Source: Flagellimonas sp. (GTDB lineage Bacteria > Bacteroidota > Bacteroidia > Flavobacteriales > Flavobacteriaceae). Taken from it: a stretch of DNA of 64,000 nucleotides. The notes beneath the pieces were generated by a model. It ran no database searches. It was not told where the DNA came from and saw nothing but the letters and a program-made list of their open reading frames with translations. The position numbers and the translations under genes were made by a program. The stretch lies in assembly GCF_965601775.1 (NCBI RefSeq), contig NZ_OZ271837.1:2374990-2438989 (forward strand). Reading direction: 5' to 3'. Positions 14,385-21,241 of this stretch are shown piece after piece (the first letter of the stretch is position 1; every line of letters starts with the position of its first letter).

Positions 14385-14792
14385 CTATTGGACTACCTCA
14401 CTGATGAGCACAACGGGCTGAATGTTGGTATAATTTGGAATATCACTTAGAATCTTTTCAGCATTTGGTCCAAAAACATTTTGGTAATCCGCCAGAGTGT
14501 CAAAGTAGAAATAACCGGCAGCCAAACAGGGTGCGGGTTCATCTGGGGTTCTTCCCGATATACCTTTGTCAATCTGCATAAACTTCAGGGCGTCACCAAA
14601 CAAACCTGCGACCATGGGCATGTGCTTGGTTGAATAGTACTCCATATCAAAAGTTTTTCCTTCATCATTCGGGTAAAGTATGGCCACTTTGACCATCCCT
14701 TTTTCAATTTTTGAAATGTTCGAAGTTGTACTCTGCTGAAAACTGGTAAGTGTAGCTACAATAAGAAAAAGAAGGATGACTTTTGTTTTCAA
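14385..14792 (-). CDS. EthD family protein with a signal-peptide-like N-terminus
   Basis: VKVAILYPNDEGKTFDMEYYSTKHMPMV...ILSDIPNYTNIQPVVLISEV. Confidence 0.8.
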   Translation of the reverse strand: MKTKVILLFLIVATLTSFQQSTTSNISKIEKGMVKVAILYPNDEGKTFDMEYYSTKHMPMVAGLFGDALKFMQIDKGISGRTPDEPAPCLAAGYFYFDTLADYQNVFGPNAEKILSDIPNYTNIQPVVLISEVVQ

Positions 14793-14984
14793 TTCGTTAG
14801 GATTTAAGGATTAAGTAAACGGATTTTTGATTGCTTAATTTACAAAAATTAGGGTTTGTTCGATTCAGTCCTTTGTTTGCTGTTAGTGTGTAAAGTAATG
14901 TTTGTATGGCTTTCCGTCTCTTTGTAAGTAACCATAAGGTTAAAATTATAATATCCTTAACATATATTCCCTATCGAAATCTTC

Positions 14985-14992
14985 TAGATTTG
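14985..14992 (+). promoter_or_regulatory. -7 promoter element immediately before the GTG at 15000 (leaderless or near-leaderless transcript)
   Basis: TAGATTTG, 7 nt upstream of the start codon. Confidence 0.55.
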
Positions 14993-14999
14993 TGATATT

Positions 15000-15314
15000 G
15001 TGAACGTTGGAATTAAACATATAGGTACGCTGCTGTTTACAGGCCTGCTTCTTCTAAAGGTTTCTGCGTTCCATGTTTATGAACACCATGACAAACACGA
15101 GGACAAAACCCACGAACATGAAAATGAGTGTGAGCTTTGTTTTCTAACTTTCTTTTTTCAGCAATCGGATATTTTAACCGCTGATTTTGATAGCATCCAG
15201 ACGAAGGTAGTTAGTCCTGTGTTCCAAGACCCAATTATTACCTTAGATTCTTTGGTGTTATCCGGATTATGGGAAACTTATTTCTTGTCTAGGCCGCCAC
15301 CTTCCTTATCGTAA
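15000..15314 (+). CDS. Small His-rich/CxxC membrane-anchored protein ending in RPPP (DUF2946/CruR/CutF-like leader peptide)
   Basis: N-terminal hydrophobic helix, HVYEHHDKHEDKTHEHENECELC, C-terminal LSRPPPSLS. Confidence 0.7.
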   Translation: MNVGIKHIGTLLFTGLLLLKVSAFHVYEHHDKHEDKTHEHENECELCFLTFFFQQSDILTADFDSIQTKVVSPVFQDPIITLDSLVLSGLWETYFLSRPPPSLS

Positions 15315-15479
15315 CCCAAAGTTTAAAAGTATCAGCCTTTCTATTCAAGGCATAGGTCCAAATCACTTTTGATTATCTATTCAAGTGGATTAACCATACA
15401 ACTACTACGCTTGAACTCCATGGTTTTATTTATACCACCATGAAATGAGGATTTCCAAACATAGTTCATATACAAACCG

Positions 15480-16196
15480 ATGATTATAACGAACAATCTT
15501 ACAAAAAAATACGGTGACCAAACGGCACTTGATAAACTGAACATGAACATTAAGGAGGGCGACATTTATTGTCTTCTTGGGGCAAATGGTGCCGGTAAGA
15601 CCACAACCATTAACCTCCTACTTGGGTTTATAGAACCTTCTTCTGGAAGTGCTTTTATCAATCAAATGAATGTCCATGAAAACCTAAAGGCGACAAAGCG
15701 ATTTCTAGCCTATATTCCAGAAAATCTAATGTTGTACCCTAGCCTATCCGCCATGGAAAATTTAGAGTACTTCTCGGGAATCGCGGGTAAAAAGCTTTCA
15801 AAAGAGCAGCTGGGAGCATTTCTGGACGAATCTGGACTGCAATCGGAAGCTTTCCAAAAGCGAATTTCCACTTTTTCCAAAGGAATGCGGCAAAAGGTAG
15901 GTATAGCCATTGCTTTGGCGAAAGATGCCAAAGTGTTGCTGTTGGATGAGCCTACGTCTGGTTTAGACCCCAAAGCCAGCAACGAATTTGGTTTGCTGTT
16001 ACAAAAACTACGCGCCAAAGGAGTAGCCACGCTTATGGCTACTCATGACCTCTTTCGAGCCAAGGAGGTAGCCACCCATATTGGAATCATGAAAGACGGT
16101 CAATTGAAACAGGAAATGGTTGCTGCTGATATTTCACTTCAAGATTTGGAAAAGGCCTACCTCAATACCATGGAATATAAAGAATTGGCGTTATGA
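15480..16196 (+). CDS. ABC transporter ATP-binding protein
   Basis: Walker A GANGAGKTT, signature FSKGMRQKV, Walker B LLLDEPTSGLD. Confidence 0.95.
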   Translation: MIITNNLTKKYGDQTALDKLNMNIKEGDIYCLLGANGAGKTTTINLLLGFIEPSSGSAFINQMNVHENLKATKRFLAYIPENLMLYPSLSAMENLEYFSGIAGKKLSKEQLGAFLDESGLQSEAFQKRISTFSKGMRQKVGIAIALAKDAKVLLLDEPTSGLDPKASNEFGLLLQKLRAKGVATLMATHDLFRAKEVATHIGIMKDGQLKQEMVAADISLQDLEKAYLNTMEYKELAL

Positions 16197-17599
16197 TTTT
16201 CAAGACTTTTCTAAAAGAAACCAAAGAACTTTTTCGAGAGGGTCGAGTGCGTATTTCTCTCATTATTGTCCTCTTTCTGTTGGGTATCGCCGTTTGGATA
16301 AGTACCAAGCAATACCAAAACATAAACGAGCAGTATGCCACAGCAACCAATATTGAGCGTGGATTGTGGGATAACCAAGGAGAAAAAAATCCGCATTCTG
16401 CTGCACATTATGGCACTTATGCTTTTAAACCCAAATACCCTTTGTCCTTAGTGGACCAAGGGGTTGATAAATATGCTGGAACCTCTATTTTTCTGGAAGC
16501 CCACAAGCGAAATGAGGCACAATTCAGTGCTGCTACGGACCAAACCGGACTTGCTCGTTTTGGTGACCTTACTCCAGATTTCATCCTCTTATTTATTATA
16601 CCACTCTTAATAACCTTATTAGGCTATAACAGCTTTTCCAAAGAACGGGAAATGGGAACCCTTACTTTACTCAAGAGCCAGGGAATATCCAATTGGAAAT
16701 GGATGTTGGGCAAATGGCTTGCGCTATTCCTACCCGTTTTGGGCATTACATTCATTTTATTTCTGATAGCGGGGGTTTTGTTGTCCAATCTCAATGACTT
16801 TGGGGTATTTAATTGGGGATCGCTTTTTACGATGTTCCTAGTTTTTGTGGTTTACTATATGATTTTTACCAATATAGTACTACTCATTTCCGCAGTAGCC
16901 AAAAGGTCAGGCATTTCCCTGGTGGTTTCCCTTTGTGTTTGGATTATCGCCTGCTTGGCTGCTCCAAAAGCAGCTAGCAATATTGCTGAAAGCAAACATC
17001 CCTATCCCACCCGACAGGAATTCGCAGCCAATGTATTAAAAGATAAAAAAGAAGGCTTGGACGGTCACAACCCCTGGAGTAAGGAAGCAAAGCTTCTGGA
17101 GCAGCAGGTTTTACAGGAACATGGTGTGGACAGCCTTCATCAATTGCCCTTTAATTTTGATGCCTATCGTATGCAAAAGGGTGAAGAACATGAGGCTGAA
17201 GTTTATTTTAAGCATTACAATCATTTAAAAGACCAATTCGCACAACAATCGAAAGTGTACAGGGGCCTAGCGGCGATATCGCCCTATTTGCCCACTCGTT
17301 TTTTAAGCATGTCCATTGCGCATACAGATTACGCTACCCATTGGGATTTTGCCGATGCCGCAGAAGAATATCGAATTGCCACTCAAAAGTTCCTGAATGA
17401 CAATTTTGCCCAGAATTCTGAGTATGGCAATTGGAGGTATAAAGCTGATGCTAATTTTTGGAAGGATTTGCCTGCTTTTGAATACGACCCTCCGGAATTA
17501 CGTACTATTCTTTCCAGGAATTCTTCTAACCTTGTGATTATGGGAGTATGGTTTGCCGCCTCCTTTGGATTTCTTTTAGTATCAATCAAAAACGTATAA
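16193..17599 (+). CDS. ABC-2 type permease with DUF3526 domain (subunit 1)
   Basis: KNPHSAAHYG, EREMGTLTLLKSQ, multiple TM helices, large periplasmic loops; ATGA overlap with the ATPase. Confidence 0.85.
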   Translation: MIFKTFLKETKELFREGRVRISLIIVLFLLGIAVWISTKQYQNINEQYATATNIERGLWDNQGEKNPHSAAHYGTYAFKPKYPLSLVDQGVDKYAGTSIFLEAHKRNEAQFSAATDQTGLARFGDLTPDFILLFIIPLLITLLGYNSFSKEREMGTLTLLKSQGISNWKWMLGKWLALFLPVLGITFILFLIAGVLLSNLNDFGVFNWGSLFTMFLVFVVYYMIFTNIVLLISAVAKRSGISLVVSLCVWIIACLAAPKAASNIAESKHPYPTRQEFAANVLKDKKEGLDGHNPWSKEAKLLEQQVLQEHGVDSLHQLPFNFDAYRMQKGEEHEAEVYFKHYNHLKDQFAQQSKVYRGLAAISPYLPTRFLSMSIAHTDYATHWDFADAAEEYRIATQKFLNDNFAQNSEYGNWRYKADANFWKDLPAFEYDPPELRTILSRNSSNLVIMGVWFAASFGFLLVSIKNV

Positions 17600-17601
17600 T
17601 C

Positions 17602-19032
17602 ATGTTGTCATATAATTTCAAATACGAGCTGAAACTTCTTTTGCGCAGCAGATGGATTCAACTCTTAAGCATCATTCTATTGGTATTATTTGGATTTTCG
17701 ACTTATAACGGTCTACAAAAAATAGAAAAACGCGAAAAAGATATAGCGGATGCGCATCTCGAAGTTAAAGAGAATGATATAATGATGTTGAAACTACTTG
17801 ATTCGGTGGAACGTGGAATGCAGGTAAGCGCATCCAGATGGACTATTCCCACCAACCCCATGGCTGTAGGAAACTATCGCCCAAGGGTCGCTGCGATGGA
17901 CCCACAACCCATGGCTTTTATTGCCACAGGTCAGGGAGACCTATTCACGCATTATGTAAAACCAAAAGTATCCGGAGACGATTTCGCTTTGAACTTTGCT
18001 GAAATGACTAGTCCAGTGCAATTGCTATTTGGCAGTTTTGATTTGGCGTTTGTGATTGTTTACCTTCTTCCTTTACTTATAATCGCATTCTCTTACAACG
18101 TACTTTCTGCAGAAAAGGAAAGTGGCTCTCTTCGGCTCTTGGCTTCACAACCCATCAGAATTCATAGTTGGGTTTTGCAAAAATTGGGACTTCGTTTCTT
18201 CTGGCTTTCCGTACTTGTTATTGGAACTCTAGTTCTTGTTTTTTTCGCAGTAGGTCTGAATCCATTTTCTGATGTGGCTACCTTTTTGGGACTTATCGCA
18301 CTGGTTTTGGCTTATATGCTGTTTTGGTTTGCTATTACATTCCTAATCAACCTGTGGGTAGGCAGCTCAGCTAAGAACGCTGTAACACTGCTTGGTCTTT
18401 GGGTGGCATTCGTACTTTTAGTACCCTCAATGCTAAACCAATTGGGCAATACACTATACCCAATGCCCTCAAGGACCTTAATGATTAATGAAATGCGGAC
18501 CCTTAAGGCAGAATTGTCTGAGAGACAAGATGAAATATTGGACAACTACTTGCGAGACCACCCAGAATATGCAATTAATGATACTACCCAATCCCGTGGA
18601 TTCTATCATCGCTATATGGCCTCGCAAAAATTGGTTAAGGAAGAATTGTCACCACTTGTCAGCGCGTATGAGGATCAATTGAAAAAACAACAAAAATGGG
18701 TAGGAAACCTAAAATGGGTCTCTCCGGCCATAATTGCACAAGAATCCTTGAATGAGATGGCGGGAACTTCCACAAGGGATTATGAGCACTTTAGAAGACA
18801 AGTAATCGGATTTGCAGGGAAATGGAGAGAACATTTTTTACCGTTCCTATTTAACAACCAAGACTTTTCCCAAAAGGATTACACGAACCTTCCTCAATTT
18901 CAATATGAGCAAAAGTCATATGCTTCTTTTGGGGCCATTCCCATTTTATTGCTGATTTCAATAGTACTATTTGCTGTTGGATTCCTATTTTCTGGACAAA
19001 CAAAAAAAGCAGGTATGCTTAGCTCGAGCTGA
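17602..19032 (+). CDS. ABC-2 type permease with DUF3526 domain (subunit 2)
   Basis: FDLAFVIVYLLPLLIIAFSYNVLSAEKESGSLRLLASQP; start set to MLSYNF at 17602. Confidence 0.85.
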   Translation: MLSYNFKYELKLLLRSRWIQLLSIILLVLFGFSTYNGLQKIEKREKDIADAHLEVKENDIMMLKLLDSVERGMQVSASRWTIPTNPMAVGNYRPRVAAMDPQPMAFIATGQGDLFTHYVKPKVSGDDFALNFAEMTSPVQLLFGSFDLAFVIVYLLPLLIIAFSYNVLSAEKESGSLRLLASQPIRIHSWVLQKLGLRFFWLSVLVIGTLVLVFFAVGLNPFSDVATFLGLIALVLAYMLFWFAITFLINLWVGSSAKNAVTLLGLWVAFVLLVPSMLNQLGNTLYPMPSRTLMINEMRTLKAELSERQDEILDNYLRDHPEYAINDTTQSRGFYHRYMASQKLVKEELSPLVSAYEDQLKKQQKWVGNLKWVSPAIIAQESLNEMAGTSTRDYEHFRRQVIGFAGKWREHFLPFLFNNQDFSQKDYTNLPQFQYEQKSYASFGAIPILLLISIVLFAVGFLFSGQTKKAGMLSSS

Positions 19033-19033
19033 T

Positions 19034-21241
19034 ATGAAAAGATTACTTCTATTGATTCTTTTGTCCAGCTCTTGGATGGGAAAAGCACAGCAGCTTGTTG
19101 ACAACTTTCCCCCACCAGAAAATCCGGTGATTATAACAGCCTCAAGAGCCCAAGGCATGATAACCATCGATGGTCGGTTGGATGAATCCGACTGGAATTT
19201 GGCACAACCCGTTACCGATTTTTTTCGAGTAGAGCCGGTGCAAGGTGGGACAATCAAGAATCCCTCAGAAGTACGTATCCTGTACGATGACAAATACATT
19301 TATTTCGGGGTTTTTGCTTTGGATTCCCTGGGAAAAAAAGGAGTTCGGATGCAGGACCTAAGTAGAGATTTTAATGGGTTGGAGAATGATGTATTCGGCA
19401 TTCAAATTGATGCCCAAAACACCAAACAATATGCTGTTTCCTTTCAAACTACACCCTATGGTAATCAGCAAGACGTTCAAAATTTTAACGACAACAACAG
19501 GGATGAGGATTGGAACGCCCTGTGGCGCGTGCGCACCCAAAGAACAAATAAAGGGTATTTCGCTGAATTTGCCATTCCATTTAAATCCATTCGATATGAT
19601 AACCCTGTGGAAGGTATTCCAGTGGAATGGGGCATCACTTTTTTTAGACTGGCCCGGAAAGACTACGAGAAAACTGTTTTTCCGGCAATTCCCCAGTCTT
19701 TTTCAGAAAATCGTATGACCTATGCTGCCAAACTCACGGGTTTGGAAGTACCTCCCCCTTCTTCCAATATTCGTATTGAACCTTACGCACTCTACCAGTA
19801 TGATGAAAGCAGAGAGGGAGATGTGTTAGTCGATAAATTGAACAATCCCAAAATTGGCGGGGATGTCAAATGGGCCATTAGTCCAAATGCAGTACTGGAT
19901 TTAACCATCAATACGGATTTCGCCCAAGCGGATGTTGACCAAGCCGTAAACAACTTGGAACGGTTCAACATCTTTTTCCCAGAAAGACGACAATTTTTTT
20001 TGGAAAACTCTGGAATTTGGGCAGGGGCTGGCAATTCTTTTGTTCGACCTTTTTTTAGTCGTACCATAGGTCTCTCCAACGCTTTTAACGCTGCTCCGGC
20101 GCCTTTGGATGCTGGTGCGAGGTTTACGGACAGAAATGAAAATCGTACCCTAGCAGCACTCACCGTTCGTCAACGGGATACCGAAGATAGTGCAGGTGCC
20201 ACCTTTGGAGTGGCTCGCTACCTTCAGAACTATGGTAAGGAAAATAACTTTGGTGCCATGGTAACATACAGGAGGGACGATGCACTGGCCGCATTGAATC
20301 AATCCAGTCAAAATAACACCACAATTTCCATAGACGGTTTTATCCGTCCGCAGAGCGAAGTCACATTCTCCTATCTGTTATCTACTTCGATAGACAGCGA
20401 AACTGAAGAAAACGGATATGCGGGAAGATTCTTTGCTGGCAAGCGCACGAACGATTATTATATCGGTTATTTTAACAATTTTGTTAGTGAAAACTACACT
20501 CCAGACATGGGTTTTGTCCGTCAGCGAAACGTCATGCAACACAGCCCTGGAGGGTATCCCATTTTACGTCCTAAATGGTTGCCCTTTGTACGTCGTTGGG
20601 ACCCGGGGGCCTTTTTTAATTATTTCCATGATTTTGAGGACTTTGGAAATTTTCAGCAGTCCAATCTGTATATTTTTCCAATTTATACTTGGTTCAAGGA
20701 CAATAGTTTTCTAGAAGCTTCCCTCACCCCAACATGGCAGAACATCAACTTTAATTTTTCTCCTTTAGGACTAGAAATTGCGGAAGGGCGTTATAGTTAT
20801 ACGCGATACACACTTCGCTATAATTCCGATCGGTCCAAAAAGTTTTCGGGCTCAATACGATATGATTTCGGTAATTTTTATAATGGGGTTCGGAATTCGG
20901 TCATAGCAGGATTGAGGTACGCTCCAGTACCACATATCGCCATGAATATTGACTATGAAAATAACAATATTAATGGGGTAGGGATTCTATCTGAAGATTT
21001 GAATACCGATTTATATACCGGAACATTGCGATTGGCCTTAAACCCAAGAGTCCAGCTTTCTACGTTTTACCAATACAACAGCTTTGATGAACAAGGTAGA
21101 TGGAACGTCCGGTTCAGCTGGGAATACACACCATTATCCTTTATCTATATTGTATTAAATGATACTCAGACGGAAATTTTTGATCCTATACAGCAAAGCA
21201 CCCAATTCATAAGTAAAATCACCCTGTTAAAGCAGTTTTAG
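19034..21241 (+). CDS. DUF5916 protein with an N-terminal CBM9-like domain; probable outer-membrane beta-barrel
   Basis: Signal peptide MKRLLLLILLSSSWMGKAQ; IDGRLDESDW, LTINTDFAQADVD, FFPERRQFFLEN; C-terminal Phe. Confidence 0.8.
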   Translation: MKRLLLLILLSSSWMGKAQQLVDNFPPPENPVIITASRAQGMITIDGRLDESDWNLAQPVTDFFRVEPVQGGTIKNPSEVRILYDDKYIYFGVFALDSLGKKGVRMQDLSRDFNGLENDVFGIQIDAQNTKQYAVSFQTTPYGNQQDVQNFNDNNRDEDWNALWRVRTQRTNKGYFAEFAIPFKSIRYDNPVEGIPVEWGITFFRLARKDYEKTVFPAIPQSFSENRMTYAAKLTGLEVPPPSSNIRIEPYALYQYDESREGDVLVDKLNNPKIGGDVKWAISPNAVLDLTINTDFAQADVDQAVNNLERFNIFFPERRQFFLENSGIWAGAGNSFVRPFFSRTIGLSNAFNAAPAPLDAGARFTDRNENRTLAALTVRQRDTEDSAGATFGVARYLQNYGKENNFGAMVTYRRDDALAALNQSSQNNTTISIDGFIRPQSEVTFSYLLSTSIDSETEENGYAGRFFAGKRTNDYYIGYFNNFVSENYTPDMGFVRQRNVMQHSPGGYPILRPKWLPFVRRWDPGAFFNYFHDFEDFGNFQQSNLYIFPIYTWFKDNSFLEASLTPTWQNINFNFSPLGLEIAEGRYSYTRYTLRYNSDRSKKFSGSIRYDFGNFYNGVRNSVIAGLRYAPVPHIAMNIDYENNNINGVGILSEDLNTDLYTGTLRLALNPRVQLSTFYQYNSFDEQGRWNVRFSWEYTPLSFIYIVLNDTQTEIFDPIQQSTQFISKITLLKQF

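Follow-up and report, generated by a model that had tools for sequence, protein, structure and literature searches.

What does a small open reading frame (ORF) of 104 codons do at the head of an ATP-binding cassette (ABC) transporter operon in Flagellimonas sp., a member of the Flavobacteriaceae? The ORF lies at 15000-15314 on the + strand of the window, by which we mean the whole stretch of 64,000 nucleotides (nt) that was analysed (assembly GCF_965601775.1, contig NZ_OZ271837.1, positions 2,374,990 to 2,438,989), and the question is whether its product is a working protein or whether its translation controls the genes behind it. Judged from sequence comparisons, the ORF is probably a metal-sensing arrest leader of the CruR/CutF type for the ABC operon, most likely acting on transcription read-through. 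The earlier note on this DNA had proposed that an exported His/Cys leader resembling CruR and CutF, with a C-terminal R-x-P-P motif, heads a transport operon, and the comparison with relatives and known systems supports it.

The ORF starts with GTG and stops with TAA. An in-frame TAG at 14985-14987, formed by the first three bases of the -7 promoter box, closes the frame upstream and leaves the GTG at 15000 as the sole common start codon; the public collection's gene caller predicts the identical 104-residue protein (P0001). The product reads MNVGIKHIGTLLFTGLLLLKVSAFHVYEHHDKHEDKTHEHENECELCFLTFFFQQSDILTADFDSIQTKVVSPVFQDPIITLDSLVLSGLWETYFLSRPPPSLS. All of the features which had previously been listed for the ORF and its peptide, including the length of 104 residues, the six His, CELC and RPPP, were found in their places, and the peptide divides as follows:

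15000..15068, + strand: signal peptide, residues 1-23, with n-region MNVGIKH, h-region IGTLLFTGLLLL and c-region KVSA, by sequence inspection
15072..15140, + strand: putative metal-binding region, residues 25-47, with six His, acidic residues and C44ELC47
15141..15290, + strand: fixed-length linker (the "ruler"), residues 48-97, ending in a conserved FLS ahead of RPPP
15291..15302, + strand: RPPP, putative ribosome-arrest motif, codons AGG CCG CCA CCT
15303..15314, + strand: tail SLS and stop codon

The His residues are at positions 25, 29, 30, 33, 38 and 40, CELC is at 44-47 and RPPP at 98-101. Alignment and sequence inspection show that the n-, h- and c-regions and the cleavage-type site VSA are conserved, and KVSAFH is kept in the family. 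AlphaFold2, run with the family alignment, places a helix over residues 3-31 (pLDDT 85-93), a weaker helix over 45-59 and coil after about residue 60 (pTM 0.29), and it found no globular fold for the leader product.

Searches of Pfam and NCBIfam assigned neither the leader protein nor 23 of its relatives to a family; in NCBIfam the relatives gave no meaningful match at E<=10. A word-based homologue search returned four relatives at 40-55% identity, one of them in a syntenic locus of a Bacteroidota metagenome-assembled genome, where leader, ABC gene, two DUF3526 genes and DUF5916 gene follow each other. By profile search of genomes, copies of the family are present in 24 of 37 same-genus genomes, with 1-3 per genome, and a profile search of 1.84 billion representative proteins gave 544 clusters (50% identity) at E<=1e-3 and 251 at E<=1e-10, the matches all being about 100 residues long. 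Among 401 sampled genomes of the phylum the family was found in seven, six from the same family-level taxon and one from the same class; the RPPP leader family is therefore essentially restricted to Flavobacteriaceae. With so conserved a family, the ORF and its motifs go far beyond what chance would give, and on sequence grounds the leader is a real gene.

Invariant positions were taken from an alignment of 23 sequences (A2), distances and codons from a separate set of 27 members, and counts of motifs, gaps and tails from the 154 best family representatives. K20, H25 (in KVSAFHVY), C44, C47 and R98-P-P-P are invariant, and H29 is nearly so. Each of the 154 best members has both a CxxC and RPPP (154/154), and the gap between the two measures 49 residues in 27 members, 50 in 93, 51 in 30 and 52 in 4; in the smaller set it is 49-51 residues in 27/27 members, with 50 in the window copy. 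The tail past RPPP has 1-8 residues, mostly 2-4. The codons for RPPP vary among members (Arg AGG, AGA or CGA; Pro CCT, CCC, CCA or CCG), and selection therefore acts on the peptide, not on the RNA. In the 154 sequences, the H box, the CxxC and the final nine residues ahead of the tail are rich in information (2.7-2.9 bits per column), whereas the linker over residues 58-92 carries 0.67 bits per column and is yet essentially gapless. A chain of fixed length and free sequence which ends in a conserved motif is what would be expected of a nascent-chain molecular ruler, not of a folded domain. The His tract, which had been taken for an addition to the CruR/CutF design, is in part just that: a four-residue insert, HEDK (residues 33-36), is private to the window copy, its columns being empty in the other 153 members, whereas H25 and H29 belong to the family; the H-to-C distance is 19 residues here versus 15 in 22/27 members.

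CruR-type leaders are defined by an export signal, a CXXC, RAPP three residues from the end and a spacing of 45 +/- 2 residues; their genes come first in operons with TonB transporters and are followed by a long intergenic region, and copper relieves CruR stalling, leading to Rho-dependent termination (PMC9426467). Like CruR of Bordetella pertussis (Bp2923), the leader described here would be a small exported protein, the product of the gene that heads a metal-transport operon, with an invariant CxxC and a C-proximal R-x-P-P about three residues from the end, a fixed motif spacing across a variable linker, a product predicted to be poorly structured, and a long intergenic region (162 nt in CruR and 165 nt here). 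Unlike CruR, it has RPPP in the place of RAPP, a spacing of 49-52 versus 45 +/- 2 residues, an extra conserved FHVYxH box with a His/acidic tract and a near-leaderless promoter; it belongs to Flavobacteriaceae and not to Proteobacteria, shows no similarity to CruR by hidden Markov model (HMM) or profile, and precedes an ABC-2/DUF3526 module where CruR precedes a TonB receptor and a PepSY protein.

CutF of Rhodobacter capsulatus, a DUF2946 protein, stalls at GPPPRL once copper is bound by its exported CxxxC, and the stall unfolds a stem-loop lying over the next gene's ribosome-binding site (bioRxiv 10.1101/2025.02.05.636593). Common to CutF and the present leader are a Sec signal peptide, a Cys motif which comes to lie outside the cytoplasm while the chain is being made (predicted here), a PPP stall site at the C-terminal end (EF-P-sensitive in CutF and putative here) and control of the next gene of the operon (proposed here). 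They differ in that CutF has CxxxC, GPPPRL and a stem-loop over a Shine-Dalgarno site, whereas here, in Bacteroidota, Shine-Dalgarno sites are not used, there is no conserved stem-loop, the spacer is far longer and an invariant Arg precedes PPP. The arrest peptides ApdA, ApdP and SecM (PMC12992588, PMC10951233) are comparable in that a small secreted or membrane protein, encoded upstream of the regulated gene, carries R-x-P-P close to its C terminus. In R-x-P-P arrest the Arg is irreplaceable, while a change of Ala to Gly is tolerated and to Ser, Asp or Pro in part; with Pro at x, the motif is partly permissive in ApdA (A121P) and keeps reporter activity low in ApdP (A132P) (PMC12992588). What is a partly active mutant among the RAPP-like peptides is the invariant natural motif of the present family. 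Upstream ORFs before TonB receptors are widespread in the RAPP/RGPP survey (PMC12992588, PMC10951233), and this survey of R-x-P-P upstream ORFs looked at RAPP and RGPP only (PMC12992588).

Membership in DUF2946, which the earlier note had offered for checking by HMM, was not borne out. PF11162 (DUF2946) gave no match to the window leader at E<=1 and none in a search of the own genome, and among 23 family members a single one reaches E=0.17. With DUF2946-like proteins of the phylum, the leader-family HMM reached a score of about 0 bits, and profile-profile comparison (hhalign) of A2 with seven such proteins, a small and poorly aligned set, gave a probability of 17.8% over 7 columns around the CxxC and nowhere else. 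A homologue search with the DUF2946-like protein L035 as a bridge returned near-identical sequences only. L035, a protein from the same phylum, has the same order of words, with ISAFHTH, CQVC, about 46 residues and then SRAPPQQA, and a distant common descent of the leader family and DUF2946 seems likely to us. The leader is accordingly not filed here as a member of DUF2946, but as a protein that would work like one.

The genes that follow the leader form a transport operon:

15480..16196, + strand: ABC transporter ATPase (PF00005, E = 7.7e-30)
16193..17599, + strand: ABC-2 permease with a DUF3526 domain (PF12040, 5.9e-29, and PF12679)
17602..19032, + strand: second ABC-2/DUF3526 permease, with an ATG start giving 476 aa, which matches the gene length in orthologue L001
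19034..21241, + strand: CBM9-like/DUF5916 protein with a signal peptide, with an ATG start giving 735 aa; the same last gene is found in L051

For the last two genes the ATG starts at 17602 and 19034 were chosen because of the orthologue gene lengths of 476 and 735 aa; the longest-ORF starts of the second permease (17548-17602) and of the DUF5916 gene (18971-19034) would overlap the preceding genes. Throughout the family the leader is always the first of its gene group. An ABC ATPase comes next in about nine loci (two ABC subtypes), and a TonB-dependent receptor is directly downstream in about 24; some of these receptors bear His-rich tracts, for example SESEHEHHHDHG. DUF3526 permease pairs are encoded in 21 of 41 genus genomes, and in at least 17 of these 21 a family leader precedes the pair on the same strand at a distance of 2-7.5 kb; among 14 control genomes, DUF3526 was found in Caulobacter only. 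In Caulobacter crescentus, the Zur-repressed znuK-znuGHI cluster consists of a TonB receptor together with an ABC-2 ATPase and two permeases (PMC4176598). The loci are alike in that a TonB receptor adjoins an ABC-2 system of one ATPase and two permeases; for znuGHI, repression by Zur has been shown and no leader peptide has been described, and ZnuHI are presumed to be DUF3526 proteins. The own genome has an RPPP paralogue of the leader (L028/L040) at G000:C1:1726586-1726882 on the minus strand, surrounded in order by DUF6146, DUF6787, the leader, a TonB receptor with the SESEHEHHHDHG tract and an acidic lipoprotein; the upstream DUF6787 gene, the protein of which ends in KRMGLGFLIP, is common to many members of the genus.

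Longer versions of the operon in sister species have the order DUF6787, RPPP leader, TonB receptor, lipoprotein, second leader, ABC gene, two DUF3526 genes and DUF5916. The second leader is of another class, and a third class is present in the own genome:

L051 4158-4487 and L052 4978-5307, minus strand: second-class (RGPP) leader, heading the ABC-DUF3526-DUF5916 module, while an RPPP leader precedes the TonB receptor
G000:C1:3065385-3065741 (own genome), minus strand: third-class (RAPP) leader of 109 aa, 39 nt before a TonB-dependent receptor

The RGPP leader has 109 residues, with a membrane helix, FHVLTSH or YHILYSH, a CxxC, 44 residues, RGPP and a three-residue tail, and is found in 7-8 genus genomes, mostly between the receptor and ABC genes. 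The RAPP leader has a membrane helix, FFHMFEGHEH, CEIC, 45 residues and then LRAPPFFC, and is without a -7 box at a distance of 7 nt (N7). Neither class has a match in Pfam. Small ORFs of the own genome carry three of its five RPPP motifs, and its single RAPP, no more than 10 residues from their end. Three leader classes (RPPP, RAPP and RGPP) occur side by side within one genus, and one operon has two of them in tandem. In every version examined, the ABC module is headed by an R-x-P-P leader even though the classes differ, which argues that the leader function itself is what has been retained by selection. Further proline-stall leaders may be encoded by two other small membrane or secreted ORFs: one near G000:C1:2883432 (+) ends in LPPPIS, with an ECF-sigma-like gene 116 nt downstream, and one near 3684662 (+) ends in LPPPRIS, with a SulP-like transporter 82 nt downstream.

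We think it unlikely that the ORF encodes instead a functional small protein that serves the transporter as a metal-binding accessory or chaperone, either in the periplasm or anchored in the membrane, and in which RPPP would be a structural or interaction motif without a regulatory stall. Such a protein would account for the export signal, the conserved His/Cys ligands and the co-occurrence with metal-type TonB receptors bearing His-rich tracts, and a role of this kind after release is compatible with a leader function. It would not account for the half of the mature chain which is free in sequence and fixed in length, nor for the lack of a predicted fold; the most conserved element, R-x-P-P at 2-4 residues from the end, is a hallmark of arrest peptides, and three unrelated-looking classes occupy the same operon positions.

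Ahead of the GTG lie the promoter box and the predicted transcription start:

14985..14992, + strand: -7 promoter box TAGATTTG (Bacteroidota consensus TAnnTTTG), conserved across the family
14997..14998, + strand: predicted transcription start, placed from the position of the -7 box and giving an mRNA leader of 2-3 nt

The box had been noted 7 nt (tgatatt) ahead of the GTG at 15000; this is confirmed, and the near-leaderless arrangement is a trait of the family. In about 17 of 23 members the distance from TAnnTTTG to the first in-frame ATG, GTG or TTG is exactly 7 nt, and in others it is 4, 6 or 9 nt, while a few members in other genera are without a box; where family members of other genera have it, the distance to the start is 6-9 nt. 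In the whole genome, only 18 ORFs of 80 aa or more have a box placed 7 nt before their start. The TAGATTTG variant precedes 31 other ORFs in the own genome and is an ordinary box there. In Flavobacterium johnsoniae the -7 box spans -12 to -5, with transcription starting 4-5 nt past its G (PMC6847099); from this and the 7-nt spacing between box and start codon, the leader mRNA is predicted to be near-leaderless, with 2-3 nt 5' of the GTG. Leaderless mRNAs are a minority in flavobacteria, amounting to 5.5% in F. psychrophilum (PMC9723704).

Behind the leader, the distance to the ABC gene holds three features:

15315..15479, + strand: untranslated spacer of 165 nt with 36 C and 21 G, without a -7 box of its own; the probable control site
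15335..15351, + strand: small hairpin GCCTT-N7-AAGGC, 21 nt past the stop codon, which includes the first TCTATTCAAG copy
15458..15479, + strand: conserved A-rich stretch before the ABC start codon, the sole conserved block among six orthologous spacers

A terminator scan found no + strand terminator in the spacer, and an Rfam scan of 14700-15700 gave a chance-level match only. Lengths among the six ABC-type orthologous spacers range from 137 to 188 nt, and a -7 box is absent from all of them, which suggests that the leader and ABC genes are co-transcribed. Their only shared sequence is the approximately 20 A-rich nt before the ABC start; the stretch at 15458-15479 is probably the translation-initiation region, and no predicted fold pairs any of the 20 nt ahead of the ABC start. 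At the other end of the spacer, a hairpin of 5-6 bp at 14-21 nt after the leader stop recurs in the family (spacers of L008, L010, L011, L014, L015 and L030), with differing stems at the same place (GUUUC/GAAAC versus GGACU/AGUCC) and often a CCCAA-like word ahead of it. The first 50 nt past the stop are slightly more structured than shuffled sequences, with a mean z of -0.78 over 27 non-independent loci and without a control set. In the short-spacer loci L008, L011, L014, L015 and L030, the start codon of the TonB receptor gene lies inside an ATGAAAA...TTTTCAT hairpin within the first 20 nt; this hairpin could be a by-product of the conserved MK..FFI codons of the signal peptide.

The earlier note had seen in this spacer two copies of a decamer, either of which could pair with CTTGAA, and had proposed that alternative RNA folds result. 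The positions are confirmed, with TCTATTCAAG at 15340-15349 and 15376-15385 and CTTGAA at 15410-15415; the folds were not borne out. From them one can build a CutF-like explanation, in which a stall at RPPP rearranges the TCTATTCAAG/CTTGAA helices and so frees or hides the ABC start for translation. In its favour, both decamer copies and CTTGAA do exist, CTTGAA has the second copy as its partner in the predicted fold while the first sits in a hairpin, CutF itself melts a stem-loop over a ribosome-binding site, and there is the slight excess of structure past the stop just described. The balance of the evidence nevertheless makes this explanation improbable. The window spacer folds with a z of -0.68, and 43 of 200 shuffles fold equally well; RNAalifold found zero consensus pairs in the six ABC-type orthologous spacers; the TCTATTCAAG repeat is absent from these spacers and private to this genome, and a 10-nt direct repeat is only mildly unusual, being matched in 67/3000 dinucleotide shuffles and 12/387 165-nt tiles of the window (about 2-3%). 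The 20 nt before the ABC start are free of pairing in every predicted fold, and a ribosome at RPPP covers about 15 nt downstream, too little to touch helices at +60 to +100. The same RNAalifold result, which gave the six spacers no consensus structure, also led us to reject a conserved riboswitch-like element.

For the arrest leader we therefore favour control of read-through, CruR-like and Rho-dependent, over unmasking of a start site, because there is no conserved spacer structure, the ABC start region is predicted to be unpaired and Shine-Dalgarno pairing is not used in Bacteroidota. With transcription starting 2-3 nt 5' of the GTG, the first ribosome would load at the 5' end of the mRNA and stay close behind RNA polymerase. 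The nascent chain would emerge with its Sec signal peptide first, then the His/Asp/Glu-rich stretch and then CELC, and the ribosome would reach RPPP exactly 50 residues past CELC and pause there. At the pause the CxxC would be 54-57 residues, and the His cluster 61-76 residues, from the peptidyl-transferase centre, so that the Cys/His cluster should be just outside the exit tunnel and, as the chain bears a signal peptide, should have reached the translocon or passed it. Occupancy of this cluster by metal would set the pulling force on the chain and thereby the length of the pause, and the pause length in turn the expression level of the ABC/DUF3526/DUF5916 operon, via Rho-dependent read-through of transcription over a 165-nt spacer that is untranslated and weakly structured, as in CruR. 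We infer the stalling and the sensing of metal, as well as Rho's role and the direction in which control acts; the genome encodes both rho and efp. As the sensed metal zinc is favoured, because of the His/Asp/Glu-rich ligands, the His-rich partner receptors and the Zur-repressed znuK-znuGHI cluster of Caulobacter, while copper is possible by analogy with CruR and CutF.

The C-over-G skew of the window spacer, 0.26 compared with 0.065 in control intergenic regions, speaks faintly for a Rho-loading region. Several points weigh against this mechanism. The family mean of the skew is 0.115, only marginally above the control (p = 0.046), and neither a rut site nor a pause site is definable from sequence. 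EF-P, the gene for which is present here, normally relieves PPP stalls. In ApdA, RPPP is only partly active (PMC12992588). Initiation may be poor from a GTG on a near-leaderless mRNA, and the likeness to CruR and CutF could be convergent, given that there is no detectable sequence homology to DUF2946.

Upstream of the promoter box lies one more conserved element:

14942..14962, + strand: conserved upstream element AAAATTATAATATCCTTAACA, near-identical among ABC-type orthologues (L001, L004, L012, L029)

A related element, AAATTATG-N8-TTAACAT, is found upstream of many of the TonB-receptor-type paralogues, and AAAATTATAATATCCTTAACA may be an operator or an upstream promoter element. A genome-wide search with it returned no other clear copies and no regulon in the own genome, and gave neither support for nor exclusion of its reading as a Zur or Fur box. 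Control might be purely transcriptional, with a repressor or activator acting on this 21-nt element and the translated leader merely riding along; conservation of the element among orthologues and Zur repression of the ABC-2 and TonB-receptor zinc genes in Caulobacter (PMC4176598) speak for it. We regard this as very unlikely, since the invariant RPPP, the ruler and the long promoter-less spacers would be left unexplained, the element is missing from the own-genome paralogue L028 and no regulon was found; transcriptional and leader layers can, moreover, coexist. A precursor of a ribosomally synthesized and post-translationally modified peptide or metallophore was rejected, the operon having no modification enzymes and the C-terminal R-x-P-P with its fixed ruler fitting an arrest peptide better.

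Metal-sensing arrest leaders are a recent discovery, and CruR and CutF have been studied in two proteobacteria. Published surveys used RAPP/RGPP motifs or the DUF2946 profile, and the RPPP family escapes both despite its hundreds of clusters and its presence in marine and other Flavobacteriaceae. What sets it apart is an invariant RPPP as its core, a ruler of 50 residues, a near-leaderless promoter and an ABC-2/DUF3526 target. Tentatively, these may amount to a leaderless attenuator of the Flavobacteriaceae, suited to a phylum without Shine-Dalgarno initiation: a start codon 2-3 nt from the 5' end would lock the pioneer ribosome behind the polymerase, RPPP placed 50 residues past a translocon-exposed His/Cys sensor would convert the extracytoplasmic metal status into read-through or termination, and interchangeable classes (RPPP-50, RAPP-45 and RGPP-44), sometimes in tandem, would control receptor and ABC module separately. 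The family would add a putative natural RPPP arrest core and a near-leaderless design to the known leaders, and with its ruler of 50 versus 45 residues, models of how force is sensed between ribosome and translocon could be put to the test. It also ties arrest leaders to ABC-2/DUF3526 modules, which may be zinc-related, and bears on the annotation of small ORFs and on the prediction of metal-uptake regulation in Bacteroidota.

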